Origin: Alphaproteobacteria bacterium | GTDB lineage: Bacteria > Pseudomonadota > Alphaproteobacteria > Bin95 | DNA: 64,000 nt | Assembly (NCBI GenBank): GCA_963665325.3 | Contig: OZ224045.1 | Span: forward strand, 2,432,001 to 2,496,000 | Reading direction: 5' to 3' | Shown here: in pieces, positions 53,721-60,586 of the stretch | Layout of the letters: each line of letters begins with the position of its first letter | Position numbering within the stretch: position 1 is the first letter of the stretch | The notes under the pieces: generated by a model | The model's input: the letters and a program-made list of their open reading frames with translations, nothing else | The model's database searches: none | What the model was told of the DNA's origin: nothing | Made by a program: the position numbers and the translations under genes

Positions 53721-54901
53721 CTATCAGCATTGACTAAGAGATAGCCGTGTTAAGGATCTTGTCCTTCAGTATTGTGTTTGGCCTCGTCCTTAGTGCCTTA
53801 CTAGTTTTCGGTTCTATGACTGGCCTCTCAAAAGATCTAGGTCGCAATTTGGAGCTTATATTTGGCCCTGTACGATGGTCCGGCGTTCGTTCCTATGTTC
53901 CACCATCTATATTGATTGGTCTCTGGATATCTATTGCACTATCCCAATTCGTTCCCTCTTGGCGTATTAAGGATAAGTCCCATCTTCCTCGATGGCCTCT
54001 AAAGGTTCAGTCGGGTTGGGCATTAATTTTGCGCGGAATAATCGCACTAATGGCAGTTATGCTTGTATCAATTTTGATTGCCAAATCGATACCAAATGCG
54101 CATAGATTCATTGATGAGACGTTTTCCATTATGGTCCCAATTGTTGTCTTTTTTGGGTTCCTTTTATATGATGCTAGGATCTACATATTCTCGGATCCTA
54201 GTCAGAAAGGAGATCGGACATCTGAGAATGAAAGCGGAAACGTTGATGCCTTGATTTGGCCAAATCCTATACAAGTGGTCCCCGGAATTGTAGGAACATT
54301 GGATTGCCGAATAGCAGTAGCGCAGGATTTGAGGCGGAGAGCAGAGCGTCTGTACCAGTTTTCGTCCTACACCTTGCGCGCCATAGGAGCTCTTCTGGTG
54401 GTAGCAGTCTTGGTGATACTATTTTCCGGATTCATAGCGGGCTTAGGTGTTGGAGAGACGGTCATAGAACGAGCGCGTTCTATTGCAAGTACCGAGAAGA
54501 ATAAATTGGACAAATTGAAACGATCAGGGCGACAAGTTGAAAATAAAATTAATAGAAGTAGAGAAGAGTATTCACGGGAGAACCTGGGAAGTGTAGAGGA
54601 AATTTTGTTGGGCAAATATGATGCAAAAATGGCTCTAAATGATTCAAGATTTCGAGAATTGCTGGCAGACGAAGAAGAATCATTGGCGCAAATAAGATAT
54701 CAAGAAGATATAGTAAAAGTTGTCGTAGCTGCAGAAGGAGTGGCGCTACAAAAAACGGTCACTGGACAGATCAAGCCACGCGGTCAAGAAGAGGATGCAA
54801 ACCTTCTAATAGCGTCAGGAGTTACAAGATTTGGAGTCTTGTTTGTGCTAATATTTATGATACAAATTTTGGTGATTATGGCGAATGCTAGCCAGAGGCC
54901 C

Positions 54902-55084
54902 TCAAGCCTTTGCGCCAGTGGGCTTTTTCTGCCGGCGGATGCGAAGCGAAGGGTCCGGCCGCTTCACGCCTGAGAAAAATGTCCGCGCGGCCTGCTCCGG
55001 GCTGCTCGCCGGCAGCTTGATGACCCTGGTCATAGGGCGGCCGCGAGGGCGCTTCTGGGACTCGCTCTTCTTCGAGGCTGGCAT
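54902..55084 (-). CDS. Small basic protein with an RPRGRP (AT-hook-like) motif at the transposon end
   Basis: 60-aa ORF with an upstream GGAG; KRPRGRP...PEQAAR. Confidence 0.5.
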   Translation of the reverse strand: MPASKKSESQKRPRGRPMTRVIKLPASSPEQAARTFFSGVKRPDPSLRIRRQKKPTGAKA

Positions 55085-55117
55085 TTCGGCATCTCCGTTT
55101 TATCGGCTTGCGGCGCG

Positions 55118-55465
55118 TTACAAGCCAGTTCCCTTCACATAATCGCCCATTCCCATTGAGCGAAGCTGCTCCTCAAGTTCGACCAGGCGCTTCTCGGTCG
55201 CGGTTCGATCCTCTACAAGCGCGCCGATCTCTTCCCGCGAAGGCCATACGCATTCCTTCACCATCATGCTGTGGGAACTTTCGGCAACGAACAGTCCACC
55301 ATCCTTGAGGTGGCCTGTCGTCTCACCCTTGATAAGGCGAGTGCCCAATGTGACGTTCTGCATCAACCGATCGGCCTTGGCGTTCAAGCAGCCCAATTTC
55401 TGCCGCGTATCCTTATGCTCTTGCAGCGCGTTCCCAATGAGCGCCGCGCGCTCGGCCTCCGTCAT
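55118..55465 (-). CDS. Hypothetical helical/coiled-coil protein (IS passenger)
   Basis: 115-aa ORF with a GGGG-type RBS and protein-like composition. Confidence 0.6.
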   Translation of the reverse strand: MTEAERAALIGNALQEHKDTRQKLGCLNAKADRLMQNVTLGTRLIKGETTGHLKDGGLFVAESSHSMMVKECVWPSREEIGALVEDRTATEKRLVELEEQLRSMGMGDYVKGTGL

Positions 55466-55536
55466 CGCCGTTCCCCGCTTCGTGCCACCGGCTACGCGCC
55501 ATCATACCACGTCCCGACATAACCGAGCAGTAAGCC

Positions 55537-56334
55537 CTATCTGAACGCTGCCTCACTGTAGCGTAGCAAGACCTTGCGAGCCTTGCCTCGCGCTCGCATC
55601 TGTATCGTCCACAGCCAGAACCCAATACGGCGGAACCGGCCTCGTGCCGTCCGGCGATCATCCTTCCAGCCTTGCTTGGCGATGCGGGTCGGTTCAGTAT
55701 CCGACTCCCATTTGTCGAGCTGTTGCCGTGCCATTGCCGGGCAGACCTGTATCGGGCGCAAGTTGCGCGCCGCAGTAGAATCGACCCGGTTGAAGATGAG
55801 ATGGTCTATCGGCATCCGCAGGGGTGTTCCTGCATCCAGAACGAACCCAGCCGCTTCTCGATTGACCATGTAGGCCCCGCCACCGCCGTTCCAGCGGCAC
55901 AGTTCTCGCATGGCGCGGCCTGATGGCGTCCTGCCAACCGGGCGTCCCAACAGCCGGGGCAGTTCAAAGGTCGTCTCGATCTTCACCAGGCCGAACGGAG
56001 GCGGCGGCCACCACTCCATGTCCGCGAGTAGGCCGGGTGTATCTGGGGCAAGTTCTACATCGTCTTCCAGGATGAGCGCCGCCGGAGCATCGGTCGCCAG
56101 GAACGCGCCCAGCGCCTTGTAGTGCGAGAGCGTGCAGGCTTCGTCGCCTATACCGATCATTCGGTCCGGCGGATTGCCGTTCGTCTCAGCCTCCCATTTA
56201 TCTTGATCGGCCAACAATCGGGCATCGATAGCTTGAACGCGCGTTGCCTCAATGCCGAGGCGGTCCAGTTGCGCAGACATGGCCTCCCACCGGTCGGGCC
56301 GGCGGTCGAGATTGATGACGAAGACAGGCAGCAC
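55537..56334 (-). CDS. Glycosyltransferase family 25 (LPS/LOS biosynthesis type), IS passenger
   Basis: VFVINLDRRPDR, ACTLSH, ALILEDDV, AYMVNR.AA and PIDH motifs. Confidence 0.88.
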   Translation of the reverse strand: MLPVFVINLDRRPDRWEAMSAQLDRLGIEATRVQAIDARLLADQDKWEAETNGNPPDRMIGIGDEACTLSHYKALGAFLATDAPAALILEDDVELAPDTPGLLADMEWWPPPPFGLVKIETTFELPRLLGRPVGRTPSGRAMRELCRWNGGGGAYMVNREAAGFVLDAGTPLRMPIDHLIFNRVDSTAARNLRPIQVCPAMARQQLDKWESDTEPTRIAKQGWKDDRRTARGRFRRIGFWLWTIQMRARGKARKVLLRYSEAAFR

Positions 56335-56787
56335 GGCGGACCCTCACAAGGCCCGTCGCTGGTGCCGGGCCGTTGTGACCAATCCGCAGGAATGCAGAGG
56401 CCCCGCCTATTCGCCAAGCGCAGGGAGCTACCCCGTGCCGGGTATCAGGCTGTTCTATTCAGCGGGCGACCCGACGAAGCGGGATGCCCACGGATTGGTC
56501 ACGAGGTCAGTCTGCGTTCTGAGAAATATCAGTGCAAGCGCGGCATAGCCGCTATAGGTCAGGCGTCCCGAGGGTCACTCCTCCCCCTCGGGGCGTCTTT
56601 CTGGAGGCTGGTCCGCCTGCTGCGCCGCTGCTACCGTGGCTTGGATCGTGGGTGTTTGACGCGTACGCTCGCGGGACGGGCAGGCCCCGGAGGGAATGCT
56701 AGTCCCCTCTGGGGCCGTCATGGCATAGCGCTTGACCGAGTCTCTGCAGGTCGGTTTCATGGAATGTGAGGAACGGGAGGACGGACG

Positions 56788-56997
56788 ATGGCCGATCACG
56801 ATACGAACGTGACCCCCAGCGAAGCGCGCGACAAGCTCAAGACGACGCTTCGCCAAGTTGCAAACGGAGAACCAACTAGCGCGACAGCGACAGAGCGTAT
56901 GCGCGCCGCCCTTGCGCTTGCTACTTTGGACGACGGAGTTCCTTCTACAAAGGCCGGTTACCTTCGGCATGTAATCAACGGTACGACAAACCAATGA
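56788..56997 (+). CDS. Hypothetical small protein (IS passenger)
   Basis: GGAGG RBS; ATGA coupling to the next ORF. Confidence 0.55.
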   Translation: MADHDTNVTPSEARDKLKTTLRQVANGEPTSATATERMRAALALATLDDGVPSTKAGYLRHVINGTTNQ

Positions 56998-57272
56998 GTG
57001 TATTTTTGGTCGCTCTCGTACAACCTCATGAAGGCGCTTGGATTTCTATTCAAACGGAGTGGCCTGATGGCCATCGTCTCGTTAGCGATACAGTCGCTCT
57101 CATTGCTACGCGAGATGCAAAAACTGCGGAGGAGGTAGGTAATCAAATTGGAATTCAAACCAGAGCAGACGACCCTACAGGCATTGTAGCCGAGTTGATA
57201 CCAGGGAAACTTGGAGGCGCTATGCCGACTAGCCTTGTAAATTGGCTTGCAGAGGTGCGTGATCGTGTCTGA
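56994..57272 (+). CDS. Hypothetical small alpha/beta protein (IS passenger)
   Basis: 92 aa, coupled to its neighbours, with a beta-alpha-beta-beta-alpha-beta-like hydrophobic pattern. Confidence 0.6.
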   Translation: MSVFLVALVQPHEGAWISIQTEWPDGHRLVSDTVALIATRDAKTAEEVGNQIGIQTRADDPTGIVAELIPGKLGGAMPTSLVNWLAEVRDRV

Positions 57273-57615
57273 TGATAAAGTATTGCTAGCTGAACTTGCA
57301 AAAAAGCTTGGGCTTCAGTCTATTCAATCTATAAACGCAGAAGCCAACCTAGAAGTTCAACGGATACTCGGTAATCTGGAAGCAAAGACTAACGGCTTGC
57401 ATGACACAATAACGGGCATCAACAGCAATCTTGAAGGCAGAATTAAGGAAACAAATACATCCATAAAAGACCTTTCGGATGATACGAACAAACGTCTTAG
57501 ATTCATTGAAAGGCTAGCTTGGTCAACATTAGGAGGCGTCACAGTCTTGGGCGTGATATTGATCTGGATTGTGCGTCCAATCATCTTGCTAGCGATAGAA
57601 AAGGCACTTCAATAG
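57265..57615 (+). CDS. Hypothetical coiled-coil protein with a C-terminal TM anchor (IS passenger)
   Basis: Heptad-rich region followed by WSTLGGVTVLGVILIWIV; GAGGT RBS before GTG 57265. Confidence 0.65.
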   Translation: MSDDKVLLAELAKKLGLQSIQSINAEANLEVQRILGNLEAKTNGLHDTITGINSNLEGRIKETNTSIKDLSDDTNKRLRFIERLAWSTLGGVTVLGVILIWIVRPIILLAIEKALQ

Positions 57616-57631
57616 CCCATTTCGTTGATGG

Positions 57632-58609
57632 TCAGGACGCTCTCGCCCCTGACTGCAGGCCATTGTCGGCGATGAGGTCGCGGTAGCGCAACCGCTTGCC
57701 GATGACGCCGCGCACGAGGACGCGCATCATGTCGATGGTGTCCAGATCGCGGATATTCTGGCGTCCAGCGAACTCGCGGATATAGCGGTCCAAGTGCTTC
57801 TGGGACAGCTTGTGGAAGGTGCCGTGGTATGAGCGCTTGAAGAGGCTCCAGAACGCTTCCATGCCGTTGGTCGTCACGTCCCCTCTGGCGTACTCGCCGG
57901 CCTTGTGATCGACGCTCTCATGCGGGCGCTTTTTTCCGAGGCTGCGGTAGGGGGAACCATCATCGGTATAGACGGTGGTGGTTTCCTCGGTGCGATCGAG
58001 GACGAAGCCTTGGAGGGTTTCCTTGTTGGCGCGCTCGACGACCGCCGCGCTGATCTGCTTTGAAGGTCGATCCCTGACGCCGGCGACGATGGCCTTGCCT
58101 TCTGACGGCGACCATTTCCGATGCCGCTTCGAGGCGTGCTTGTTCTTCTCCTTGCCGCCGATGAATGTCTCATCGGCCTCGACCGGGCCGGGGAAGGGCT
58201 TCCCGACGCCGGCCTCGAAGCCCTCGCGGATGCGCTGCATGAGGAACCAAGCTGTCTTCTGCGGGATCTTCAGGTCGCGATGCACCTTCATGCTGGCCGT
58301 GCCCTTGATGCCCGAGGCCATCAGATAGAAGGCGATGGCCCATTTGCGGAGGCCGAGCTTGCTGTCCTGCATGGCCGTGCCCTTGCGGACGCTGAAATGC
58401 GCTCTGCAATCGCGGCATCGGTAGGGCATGGGTTTGCGGTTCTTGCAGACGGCGTGATTGAGCGACCCGCACTCTGGGCAGTAGATGCCGTCCGGCCAGC
58501 GCTGCGCCTCGAACCATTTTTCGGCCGTCGCATCATCGGGGAACATATCGTTCAGCTCCATGATGGAGATGGCCTTGCGGTGCGCGCGTCCTGGTGCTTT
58601 CTTTCCCAT
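57632..58609 (-). CDS. IS1595-family transposase
   Basis: Zn ribbon (RWPDGIYCPEC...CRDC), HTH (KTAWFLMQRIRE), and catalytic VEADETFIGG, VYTD and TTNGMEAFWSLFKR; AGAGGAGG RBS. Confidence 0.95.
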   Translation of the reverse strand: MGKKAPGRAHRKAISIMELNDMFPDDATAEKWFEAQRWPDGIYCPECGSLNHAVCKNRKPMPYRCRDCRAHFSVRKGTAMQDSKLGLRKWAIAFYLMASGIKGTASMKVHRDLKIPQKTAWFLMQRIREGFEAGVGKPFPGPVEADETFIGGKEKNKHASKRHRKWSPSEGKAIVAGVRDRPSKQISAAVVERANKETLQGFVLDRTEETTTVYTDDGSPYRSLGKKRPHESVDHKAGEYARGDVTTNGMEAFWSLFKRSYHGTFHKLSQKHLDRYIREFAGRQNIRDLDTIDMMRVLVRGVIGKRLRYRDLIADNGLQSGARAS

Positions 58610-58630
58610 GCATCCTCCTCTTTGGATAGC

Positions 58631-58658
58631 ATGGTATCATAAAATGCCCTCGTGTCAA
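58631..58658 (-). promoter_or_regulatory. Transposase promoter just inside the terminal IR
   Basis: TTGACA-16 nt-TACCAT with an extended TG on the minus strand. Confidence 0.55.
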
Positions 58659-59106
58659 ACGGATTTGGCTAGCATTCGCCATAATCACCCAAATTTTGGT
58701 TAATGTGTATCGCTATACAGTTCGCCTAACAGCTCATTACATGGCTCAAGGAGATGCGCTTTTGTTGGCAAACGAGGAAGGCAAATCTCTATCAAGCATG
58801 ATGCGGGTGTTGTCGCCACTAGATGTAGATTTTGGCAGAAGGGCTAACTTTCCAATGCAACAAATTATAAAATTATTGCGCGAGGCTAGGCGGACAACTG
58901 ACCGGTAAGGCGGATTTAGGTCTTTGGGATTCCGAAGAGTGGGAAGGTCTTAGCTCGTGCCATGCCACCCTTTTCTTGGTGGCCATGTCGATCTCTCGCG
59001 GACCGAGTGTTTTGCGGAGCAGATCATAGAATCCGCCGGGAGCCGGAGCGGTTGGCGTTCGATCCGTGTATCAGGTAGTAGTCGAACAGGACCATTCGGC
59101 CGGCTT

Positions 59107-59490
59107 CTAGTAGAAATCGACCGTGTCGAGTTCGCCGTTCTGCACCTTTTCCGGGTCGTCGTTGGAGCAGCGAGGAAAGAGAGTGCGCGCACGATGGCTG
59201 CCGGGCAGGGCGCGCAGGCAGCCGTTTTGGGTCGTCGCATCGTCGAAGGCGATCCAGCAGCTTGTCGTGGCCAGCGGGCGGATGATGGCCTCATAGACGG
59301 GCGAGGCCTTACCGCCCGCGCGGGGGATATGCGGCGCGATCAGCCGTTCCGGCGGCAGGTTCGGGTTCTCCGCCATCAGCCGTTCCAGCGCAGCCCGCAT
59401 CTCGTCGAGTTGCGCCGGCGGTAGCCGGTAATCCGGCACGACGAAGCCGTCGTACCGATAGGCCTCGCCGTCGGCAGCGGGAAGCGCCAT
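59107..59490 (-). pseudogene. Degraded PhyH-family dioxygenase (internal deletion and 3' truncation)
   Basis: Y..DGFVVP, IRPLAT.SCWIAFDDAT..NGCLR.LPGSH are retained, but the HxD motif and the C-terminal His region are missing. It abuts the AT-rich islet. Confidence 0.75.
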
Positions 59491-59497
59491 CCGTCTC

Positions 59498-60586
59498 CTA
59501 TTCCATCACGATTCGCGGCGCGACGGGGCCGGTCGCGCGGCGGGCTTCGACCTCGCGCCAGAGGCGGGCGGCGATTTCGCGGAAGGCCTGGCCGGAGGGG
59601 GAGGTGTCGTCGGCGGCTGCGGGTGTGCCGGCGTCGCAGCGTTCGCGGAGTTCCAGCGCCAGCGGGGCTTCGCCGAGGAAGGGCGCGCCGAGCTTTTCCG
59701 CTTCCGCGCGCGCGCCGCCCGAGCCGAAGATATGGGTGCCCTTGCCGCAATGTGGGCAGACGAACACCGACATGTTCTCGACGAGGCCCAGCACCGGCAC
59801 CTCGACCTTGCGGAACATGGAAATGCCCCGCCGGGCGTCGAGCAGCGCGATATCCTGCGGCGTCGAGACGATAACCGCCCCGGTGAGCGGCACGCGCTGG
59901 GAGAGCGTCAGCTGCGCGTCTCCCGTCCCCGGCGGCATGTCGATGAGCAGCACGTCGAGGTCGCCCCAGGCGACATCGCCGATGAGCTGCTGCACCGCGC
60001 TCATCACCATCGGCCCGCGCCAGATCATCGCCGTCTCTTCCGAAATCAGGAAGCCGATCGACATGCAGGCCACGCCCCATTTTCGCATCGGCTCCAGCGT
60101 CTTTTCGCCGACAAGCGACGGCTTGCCGGAAATGCCCATCATGCGCGGCAGGGAGGGGCCGAAGATGTCGCTGTCCATGAGCCCGACAGCGAGGCCCTGC
60201 CGGGAGAGCGCGACCGCGAGGTTGACGGCCACGGTGGATTTGCCGACGCCGCCCTTGCCGGAGGCGACGGCGACGATGCTCTTCACGCCCGGCAGCTCGA
60301 TCCGGCCCGAAGTCTGCCCGGAGGTGCTGCCGGCCGGCCGGCGCTCCGGGGGCGGCGCGGCGGCGCGTTCGGCGGTCAGCACCACGGTGGCGCTGGTGAC
60401 GCCGGGCAGGGCGGTGAGCGCGGCCTCGATGGCGCGGCGCTCGTCCCCGGCCTCCCCGGCCAGGCCGGGTTCCACCTCCAGTGACAGCTGCACCGCACCG
60501 TCCTTGACGGCGATGCCGCCGACGCGCCCGATGAGCGCCAGGTCCTGCGCTGCGGCGCGAATGTCCGATTCCGTCGGTTCGACCAT
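59498..60586 (-). CDS. mrp: Mrp/ApbC (NBP35 family) Fe-S cluster carrier ATPase
   Basis: VASGKGGVGKST, DIFGPS, WRGPMV, DMPPGTGD and ENMS.F.CPHC motifs. Confidence 0.95.
   Translation of the reverse strand: MVEPTESDIRAAAQDLALIGRVGGIAVKDGAVQLSLEVEPGLAGEAGDERRAIEAALTALPGVTSATVVLTAERAAAPPPERRPAGSTSGQTSGRIELPGVKSIVAVASGKGGVGKSTVAVNLAVALSRQGLAVGLMDSDIFGPSLPRMMGISGKPSLVGEKTLEPMRKWGVACMSIGFLISEETAMIWRGPMVMSAVQQLIGDVAWGDLDVLLIDMPPGTGDAQLTLSQRVPLTGAVIVSTPQDIALLDARRGISMFRKVEVPVLGLVENMSVFVCPHCGKGTHIFGSGGARAEAEKLGAPFLGEAPLALELRERCDAGTPAAADDTSPSGQAFREIAARLWREVEARRATGPVAPRIVME

Follow-up and report, generated by a model that had tools for sequence, protein, structure and literature searches.

Many-copy cis-regulatory leader RNAs are exemplified in bacteria by the c-di-GMP riboswitches, and the mutually exclusive pairing of four segments constitutes the logic of the classical attenuators. 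Structured RNAs of another kind, the bridge RNAs of IS110 and the omega-RNAs of IS200/IS605, are transposon-encoded guides that are found beside the recombinase wherever the element occurs and whose loops match the transposon ends or the target. A further RNA, sRNA-Xcc1 (Rfam RF02221), is said in papers that cite its 2011 description to act in trans. In Xanthomonas campestris it is an 88-nt species on Northern blots with mapped ends (PMC2996969). More recent papers place sRNA-Xcc1 upstream of symE within the integron cassette that is most widespread in Xanthomonas (bioRxiv 10.1101/2025.06.18.660453), count seven Xylella copies, of which five are arranged in tandem (PMC12189769), and locate it upstream of an ORF6N gene in the APSE phage (bioRxiv 10.1101/2020.03.17.996009). 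The element analysed here belongs to a large family of covarying leader RNAs that is uncatalogued and has sRNA-Xcc1 as a relative. This copy probably represents the structured 5′ leader of the mRNA of a glycosyltransferase family 25 (GT25) gene, a cis-acting and bistable RNA that was carried together with this gene as a passenger into an IS1595-family transposon. The family is not described in the literature on sRNA-Xcc1, on the C4/IsrK antisense RNAs or on the structured RNAs of sponge symbionts, bioRxiv supplements lying outside the scope of that survey.

The window, that is, the whole stretch of 64,000 nt that was analysed, had been predicted to contain a cloverleaf-like element closed by a perfect 12-bp stem, inside a transposon and about 40 nt upstream of the GT25 start. 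These features are borne out by the analysis. The 12-mers GTGACCAATCCG (56375-86) and CGGATTGGTCAC (56491-502) are perfect complements, and the closing helix, P1, extends to 16 bp when G-U pairs are included (56375-56390 / 56487-56502). The GT25 start (56334) lies 40 nt downstream of the end of the element on the minus strand. Compared with dinucleotide shuffles, the 132-nt element yields z values of -4.55 and -4.36 on the two strands, and none of 200 shuffles folds as well. A search of positions 54000-60000 against Rfam at E<=10 gave no match on the element, and ARAGORN called no tRNA-like gene there. The surrounding DNA is an IS1595-family transposon, since a transposase, terminal inverted repeats (IRs) and an 8-bp target duplication, a trait of the IS1595 family, are all present. 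Its 31-nt IRs are 97% identical, and its transposase matches PF12762 (E 8e-36) and, with an N-terminal zinc ribbon, PF12760 (E 1.8e-7). The coordinates of all these features are collected in Table 1.

Table 1. Features of the GT25 leader and of the transposon that carries it (window positions; strand as plus or minus)
Feature	Position	Strand	Basis or remark
Leader RNA element, P1 to P1	56375..56502	(-)	covariance model R1, 142.8 bits
P1 closing helix	5′ strand 56502-56487; 3′ strand 56390-56375	(-)	
P1a hairpin	56483-56480 / 56473-56470	(-)	
Segment S (GUCGGGUCG)	56475-56467	(-)	includes 3′ half of P1a
P2	56466-56461 / 56407-56402	(-)	CCCGCU/GGCGGG
Conserved GAAUAGAACA junction	between P2 and P3 in the leader element	(-)	
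P3, long irregular hairpin	56450-56413; loop UAGCU 56430-56426	(-)	
Variable CU-rich linker	56401-56391	(-)	
Conserved 3′ segment S′ (CGGCCCGGC) and hairpin HP3	56350..56372	(-)	S′ at 56372-56364
S2, S-like segment CGGGCC	56355-56350	(-)	pairs with S′ in HP3
Promoter-like site	56509..56537	(-)	-35 TTGCAC 56537-56532; 17-nt spacer; -10-like CAGACT 56514-56509
SD-like GAGGG and GTG start codon of GT25	56332..56345	(-)	GAGGG 56345-56341; GTG 56334-56332
GT25 gene (glycosyltransferase family 25, 265 aa)	55537..56334	(-)	Pfam PF01755, E 1.1e-17
IS1595-family transposon with passengers	54871..58689	.	IRs, transposase, target duplication
Terminal inverted repeats (IRs) of the transposon	54871-54894 and 58666-58689		
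8-bp target duplication CAAATTTT	54863-54870 and 58690-58697		direct repeat on both flanks of the transposon
Transposase gene of the transposon	57632-58609	(-)	DDE_Tnp_IS1595
Passengers of the transposon	ORF 55118-55465 (-); GT25 and leader (-); three small ORFs 56788-57615 (+)		

Apart from GT25 and its leader, the transposon holds several other passengers. Between GT25 and the left transposon end lies an ORF of 115 aa without a Pfam family, the 3′ part of which is also found in a decayed sibling transposon of the same genome. The three small ORFs (69, 92 and 122 aa), likewise without a Pfam family, overlap one another in an AT-richer stretch of the transposon, divergent from the GT25 leader, and are possibly a foreign passenger module. 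A GC-rich hairpin of the GACGCCCCGAGGG...CCCTCGGGGCGTC type (56555-56601) is situated between the divergent promoters; on the plus strand it has a weak similarity to Rfam ar14, of a terminator-like kind (17.8 bits, E 5).

A structured non-coding RNA inside a transposon recalls the bridge and omega-RNAs, and pieces of the left transposon end that appeared to cluster in a loop region had led to the suggestion that an RNA or ssDNA structure encoded by the element recognizes the transposon ends in a guide- or bridge-like manner, or that the element is a cargo-capture site. The matches as such are real: GAATG, followed after a 5-nt gap by CAGAGGCCC, aligns to the left end with 14 of 14 letters, and the 8-mer TGGCGAAT of the left end is matched on the other strand of the element. 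Their clustering is marginal rather than striking. The best local alignment of the 40-nt left end with the element scores 19, a value that 59 of 1925 other 132-nt segments of the window also attain (3.1%; some of these segments overlap the left IS end, the maximum being 80), as do 42 of 1000 shuffles (4.2%). The ATTCGCCA 8-mer match is the family-wide GGCGAAUAG junction, which is also present in genomes without the IS1595-type element of the window, and the P2 3′ strand accounts for part of CAGAGGCCC. Three IR sites occur in the genome to which the window belongs (hereafter the own genome), namely the two window ends and a solitary end at C1:1111797. The solitary end belongs to the decayed sibling (C1:1108824-1111823; L157 4824-7823, also L028), in which a full transposase is lacking and what persists is a 217-nt C-terminal fragment of the transposase (91%) and a left end of 234 nt whose IR is intact (88%). 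This second IS1595-type element carries a family copy in the same relative position, before the gene of a 138-aa secreted protein, a point in favour of the guide reading. The leader copies of the two transposons are, however, just 78% alike, as is any pair in the genome, and the DNA on both sides of them is unrelated, which argues that the element is not a recombination boundary. The occurrence of leader modules in two transposons fits mobility of the module and not a role in transposition. Furthermore, 11 of the 13 family copies in the own genome reside outside IS1595-type DNA (2/13 lie within it), and the IR was found at none of 152 other family loci within flanks of 700-1500 nt. In contrast to the bridge and omega-RNAs, which accompany their transposon, the element thus belongs to a passenger gene, is found mostly outside transposons, and has loops that match the ends at a level near chance. 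Since the end matches are near chance and the copies lie mostly outside IS1595-type DNA, the leader is best regarded as passenger DNA, and a part in end recognition or cargo capture is scarcely credible.

The family itself became apparent from a BLAST search of the own genome with the element, which returned 10 further places at 71-83% identity. In the aligned copies the core is conserved and the flanking arms are different in each copy yet complementary. A covariance model of 144 positions and 20 core pairs (R1) detects 13 copies in the own genome, two pairs among them being situated within a duplicated region. Among other genomes of the genus, the family is present in 15 of 16, with 3-11 matches each. 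It was found in none of 20 genomes of two sister genera of the bacterial family and in two of 24 genomes representing further families within the class, where one match is partial (model positions 42-96). When a degenerate 28-letter core pattern was scanned over one genome per prokaryote species in public contigs, at least 95 stretches were recovered; among the matches listed, R1 was applied to 80 loci (L062-L141), of which 79 match, 78 of them over the full length. The record titles of the pattern-scan matches listed refer mostly to metagenome-assembled Alphaproteobacteria, and other titles among them name Acidobacteria/Acidobacteriota, Terriglobia, Binatia, Spirochaetia, Rhodothermales, and Gammaproteobacteria. 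Among the matches listed, copies from outside the Alphaproteobacteria score 34-75 bits, except for one of 131 bits on a 36-kb contig labelled Gammaproteobacteria, for which a binning error is possible. Members of the family also occur in runs labelled sponge metagenome. Throughout the family, about 145 nt are arranged as a hypervariable P1 of ~16 bp, a near-invariant core and a conserved 3′ segment. The core comprises, in this order, P1a, P2, the GAAUAGAACA junction, P3 with the loop UAGCU, and the GGCGAAUAG junction.

Two variations on this organization were observed. Short leaders that lack the P3 hairpin and run straight into GT25 coding sequence occur twice in the own genome (C1:804392-804518 and C3:1337817-1337943, L032 and L033) and also at L124; scoring 43.4-43.8 bits, they represent deletion derivatives or, alternatively, forms nearer to the architecture of sRNA-Xcc1. 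In genome G003, three family copies lie 1.1-1.3 kb apart (C3:1262208-1264746); the two copies of locus L049 each precede a paralogous gene for a lipoprotein of ~210 aa and thus form a tandem array of leader plus gene.

P1 is too variable to be aligned by MAFFT and RNAalifold and was examined in each copy separately. Over 112 unique copies, its mean length is 16.5 bp (range 7-24), and it contains 1708 Watson-Crick and 137 G-U pairs, as opposed to 13 A.C mismatches and 25 others of the 1x1 type. That G-U exceeds A.C tenfold indicates a constraint on a minus-strand RNA rather than on a DNA inverted repeat. The core helices were assessed in an alignment of 79 sequences from the matches listed, which is fitted to R1 and so favours the R1 structure; in it, 98.2% of 1516 cells are paired and both sides have changed in 11 of 20 pairs (68 cells), the scan pattern having fixed some positions and left the covarying P2 positions and all of P3 free. 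None of 500 shuffles reaches any of five measures, and slid controls are paired at 39-62%. The helices supported by covariation are P2, in which four of six pairs have changed on both sides, and P3. In P1a (CCCG/CGGG), 99.3% of cells are paired and no double changes occur; being invariant, this helix is uninformative with respect to covariation. Three inner hairpins had been proposed in the original prediction. CCCG..CGGG, which corresponds to P1a, is found in nearly all family members. The other two are not supported: TACCC..GGGTA is paired in 75.1% of cells, which does not exceed shuffles since 48 of 500 are as high, and one pair of GCTG..CAGC, a helix with several positions fixed by the scan pattern, is broken in 27 of 77 sequences without covariation.

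Inverted repeats that flank a segment of ~100 bp before surface-protein and glycosyltransferase genes are also what an inverton would present, such genes being its typical targets, and a multi-copy family spread across lineages might consist of DNA-level elements: an invertible promoter switch whose inverted repeats would be the P1 arms, a MITE or an attC-like site. Such an origin would not lead one to expect 137 G-U against 13 A.C in P1. Moreover, the promoter-like box stands outside the repeats, upstream of P1, and not between them as in an inverton, and in place of two orientations the core is found in sense orientation wherever a downstream gene can be assigned. Strand-changing joints were not seen in the DNA runs examined, the contigs of which hide rare forms. 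The variable arms and conserved interior are the reverse of the pattern in MITEs and attC sites, and TTGCA..TGCAAC does not fit the attC core-site consensus (RYYYAAC / GTTRRRY). An element acting at the DNA level is consequently very improbable.

In 57 of 107 unique upstream regions, a pentamer resembling a -35 box (TTGAC/TTGCA type) begins at -36..-33 relative to the start of the model, whereas other 4-nt windows contain it 2.25 times on average and four times at most. A generic scan of positions 56250-56850 for sigma-70 sites and terminators called no sites, and the promoter of the window copy is for this reason inferred from positional conservation. Its 17-nt spacer and weak -10 predict a transcript start at ~56503-56501, the first bases of P1. 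A gene begins shortly downstream on the same strand at 10 of the 11 own-genome copies examined (9/10 distinct ones), L009 having no obvious downstream gene, and the same applies to most of ~115 other copies. As a gene start lies on the same side of nearly all copies, the element is a minus-strand 5′ leader. An earlier description of it as a riboswitch-like GT25 leader is thereby upheld as far as the leader is concerned, by the sense strand and by the covarying family, and the ligand sensing that this description implies is a putative property. The genes served in the own genome encode GT25 proteins in four cases (one locus is duplicated and counts twice), four lipoproteins that have an ...AC-GGGG lipobox and linker, and two small signal-peptide proteins. 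One of the lipoproteins scores above the cut-off for the Pfam TbpB beta-barrel (TbpB_B_D; 28.2 bits) and a second one below it (22.4 bits). At other loci, glycine-linker lipoproteins, signal-peptide proteins and GT25 recur, as seen with a simple ORF rule on short flanks and without a formal count. Locus L063 of another genome features nearly the same promoter as the window copy and a nearly identical P1, and there a small membrane protein gene takes the place of GT25 on the minus strand of the locus. The same promoter and leader before a different gene imply that the two travel as a module. L063 also bears a perfect 44-nt tandem duplication of the P1 3′ strand, S′ and HP3.

Sequencing runs offer a limited view of the RNA. 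Among 17 listed runs, five cover most of a 1.5-kb stretch, and four of the 17 were examined as contigs, which carry no strand, ends or level. In two RNA-library runs (X11 and X12), 22-23 contigs of 86-439 nt are confined to the conserved core (56359-56483) at a word depth of up to 195. These contigs differ from the window copy at 3-14 positions and thus derive from other family members. Identical contigs recur in X11 and X12, which may therefore represent a single data set, and gaps in their cover, such as that over the GT25 coding region, carry no weight. The neighbouring small ORFs are matched exactly by a contig of 209 nt at a depth of 2.3. Family RNAs may hence be abundant, for which these data are a weak hint. 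The restriction of the contigs to the core, some of them ending beside adapter sequence, would also agree with a release of the core from the mRNA 5′ end, for example by cleavage in the P1 duplex, as a stable trans-acting sRNA, the downstream gene being merely co-transcribed. The 16-bp perfect 5′ duplex is a plausible substrate of RNase III, and the 88-nt Northern species of sRNA-Xcc1 provides a precedent. However, the contigs mostly end where sequence conservation stops, and these ends need not be RNA ends. A promoter of its own and a position before a gene, neither of which a free sRNA needs, are kept in most copies, and thirteen copies per genome share the same core and differ in P1. Nor is there copy-specific complementarity to the translation start of the gene that each copy precedes. 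A free sRNA is thus an unlikely product of these loci.

The relationship to sRNA-Xcc1 is evident from comparisons in both directions. RF02221 matches family loci over its full length and in one register at five of 12 loci, with 23.1-29.3 bits against a cut-off of 53. At E<=10 it has no hit on the window copy, and over the own genome it detects none of the 13 copies and one unrelated site of 21.1 bits. In the shared register, the outer helix of RF02221 corresponds to a pairing of S with S′ (S:S′), its first hairpin to P2, the AAUACAA loop and the base of P3, and the P1 3′ strand occupies the place of its second hairpin. Among 151 genomes from the class, RF02221 is above the cut-off in five and reaches E<=0.01 in 26, counting genome G076, which is flagged as unpublished and on which no conclusion depends. 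Conversely, at six of 12 RF02221 loci R1 has a match that coincides with the RF02221 site (E 2.6e-9 to 8.6e-4) and lacks the P3 insertion. At one RF02221-type locus, S and S′ have changed together (GUUGGGAGG / CCUCCCGGC). Sub-threshold RF02221 hits are also obtained in two GC-rich control genomes. Because scores stay below the cut-off, control genomes yield hits and the window copy is missed, the leader family is considered an expanded relative of RF02221 and not a member of it. Both RNAs share the order of their elements: the 9-bp outer helix of sRNA-Xcc1 corresponds in register to the possible S:S′ pairing and its inner helix to P2, and the AAUACAA/GAAUAGAACA internal loop, a CCC/GGG stem (GCC/GGC in the leader family), a GAA and a 3′ CACC tail are common to the two. 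Despite this relatedness, several differences exist. The leader family measures ~145 nt (144 in the model) rather than ~87 nt, contains an insertion of ~30 nt (P3), and has P1a and HP3 in addition. Furthermore, a 16-bp P1 involving the RNA 5′ end replaces the local second hairpin of sRNA-Xcc1. sRNA-Xcc1 resembles the leader family in being multi-copy and located upstream of a gene in mobile DNA; the genes served by the leader family encode surface lipoproteins and GT25 proteins.

The conserved segments after and within the core allow alternative pairings. RNAalifold pairs S with S′, which follows P1, and S:S′ can form in 98.2% of 678 cells, most S positions having been fixed by the scan pattern. 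Double-sided covariation of S:S′ was not found within the family; every change is one-sided, so that the count equals the shuffle control. Local folding predicts the pairing of S′ with S2 in HP3 for 98 of 104 unique copies. S:S′ and S′:S2 compete for the same bases, and because S′ can pair with either segment, the RNA can form CCCG:S together with S′:S2, or else S:S′, which crosses P1. The four-segment logic is that of the attenuators; in the leader family, a conserved core lies between segments 2 and 3.

Several conventional outputs of such a switch were considered. HP3 does not qualify as a general intrinsic terminator, since it is followed by at least four U in just 8 of 104 copies. Sequestration of the SD through S′ shows a weak and inconsistent trend: with S′ blocked, predicted SD accessibility is lower in 32, higher in 16 and the same in 26 copies (mean 0.446 versus 0.404; 0.29 versus 0.30 for the window copy). 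A C4-like, copy-specific antisense action of P1 on its own translation start was dismissed because cognate pairs equal non-cognate ones (-10.90 versus -10.85 and -17.35 versus -16.16 kcal/mol).

On the cis-acting reading, which is the one preferred here, the leader family would most likely constitute a cis-regulatory switch for surface-protein genes. Transcription of the minus strand from the leader's own promoter would produce an RNA that begins at the first base of P1. In one form of this RNA, CCCG would pair with S in P1a and S′ with S2 in HP3; in the other, S would pair with S′ and close the conserved core as the outer helix of sRNA-Xcc1 does. A signal that stabilizes the core, be it a small ligand or a protein, could then shift the balance between the two and alter translation or stability of the downstream mRNA. 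Leader and GT25 would have entered the IS1595 transposon together as passenger DNA, with no part in transposition.

The family has a conserved, covarying, aptamer-like fold in a 5′ UTR and, like multi-copy riboswitches and leaders, combines a covarying multi-helix core with a variable closing helix and with alternative pairings after the core, in many copies per genome before genes for secreted and surface proteins. It differs from riboswitches in that P1 is far longer than usual and a consistent terminator or SD-sequestering platform was not found, and no Rfam riboswitch class hits the window copy or the family loci at E<=10. It is a tentative and rather doubtful proposition that the family forms a new class of riboswitches, branching from the sRNA-Xcc1 fold in expanded form, and that it senses a small signal and governs a host-facing surface regulon in several phyla. 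In this case, a second messenger or a compound derived from the host might, for example, serve as the signal, and the regulon would consist of surface lipoproteins, LOS-type glycosyltransferases and secreted proteins of host-associated bacteria. If this proposition were true, sRNA-Xcc1 and its copies in phages, integrons and islands would be terminated or processed switch leaders and not classical sRNAs.

For transposon biology, the outcome is negative, as nothing found here points to an RNA component of IS1595. For sRNA-Xcc1, a poorly understood Rfam family, the findings provide a functional context, that of a leader of mobile accessory genes. If the leader acts as a switch, one fold would control about a dozen genes for surface lipoproteins, glycosyltransferases and secreted proteins per genome, and host-facing surface regulation in uncultured symbionts would become testable with a reporter and a ligand screen.
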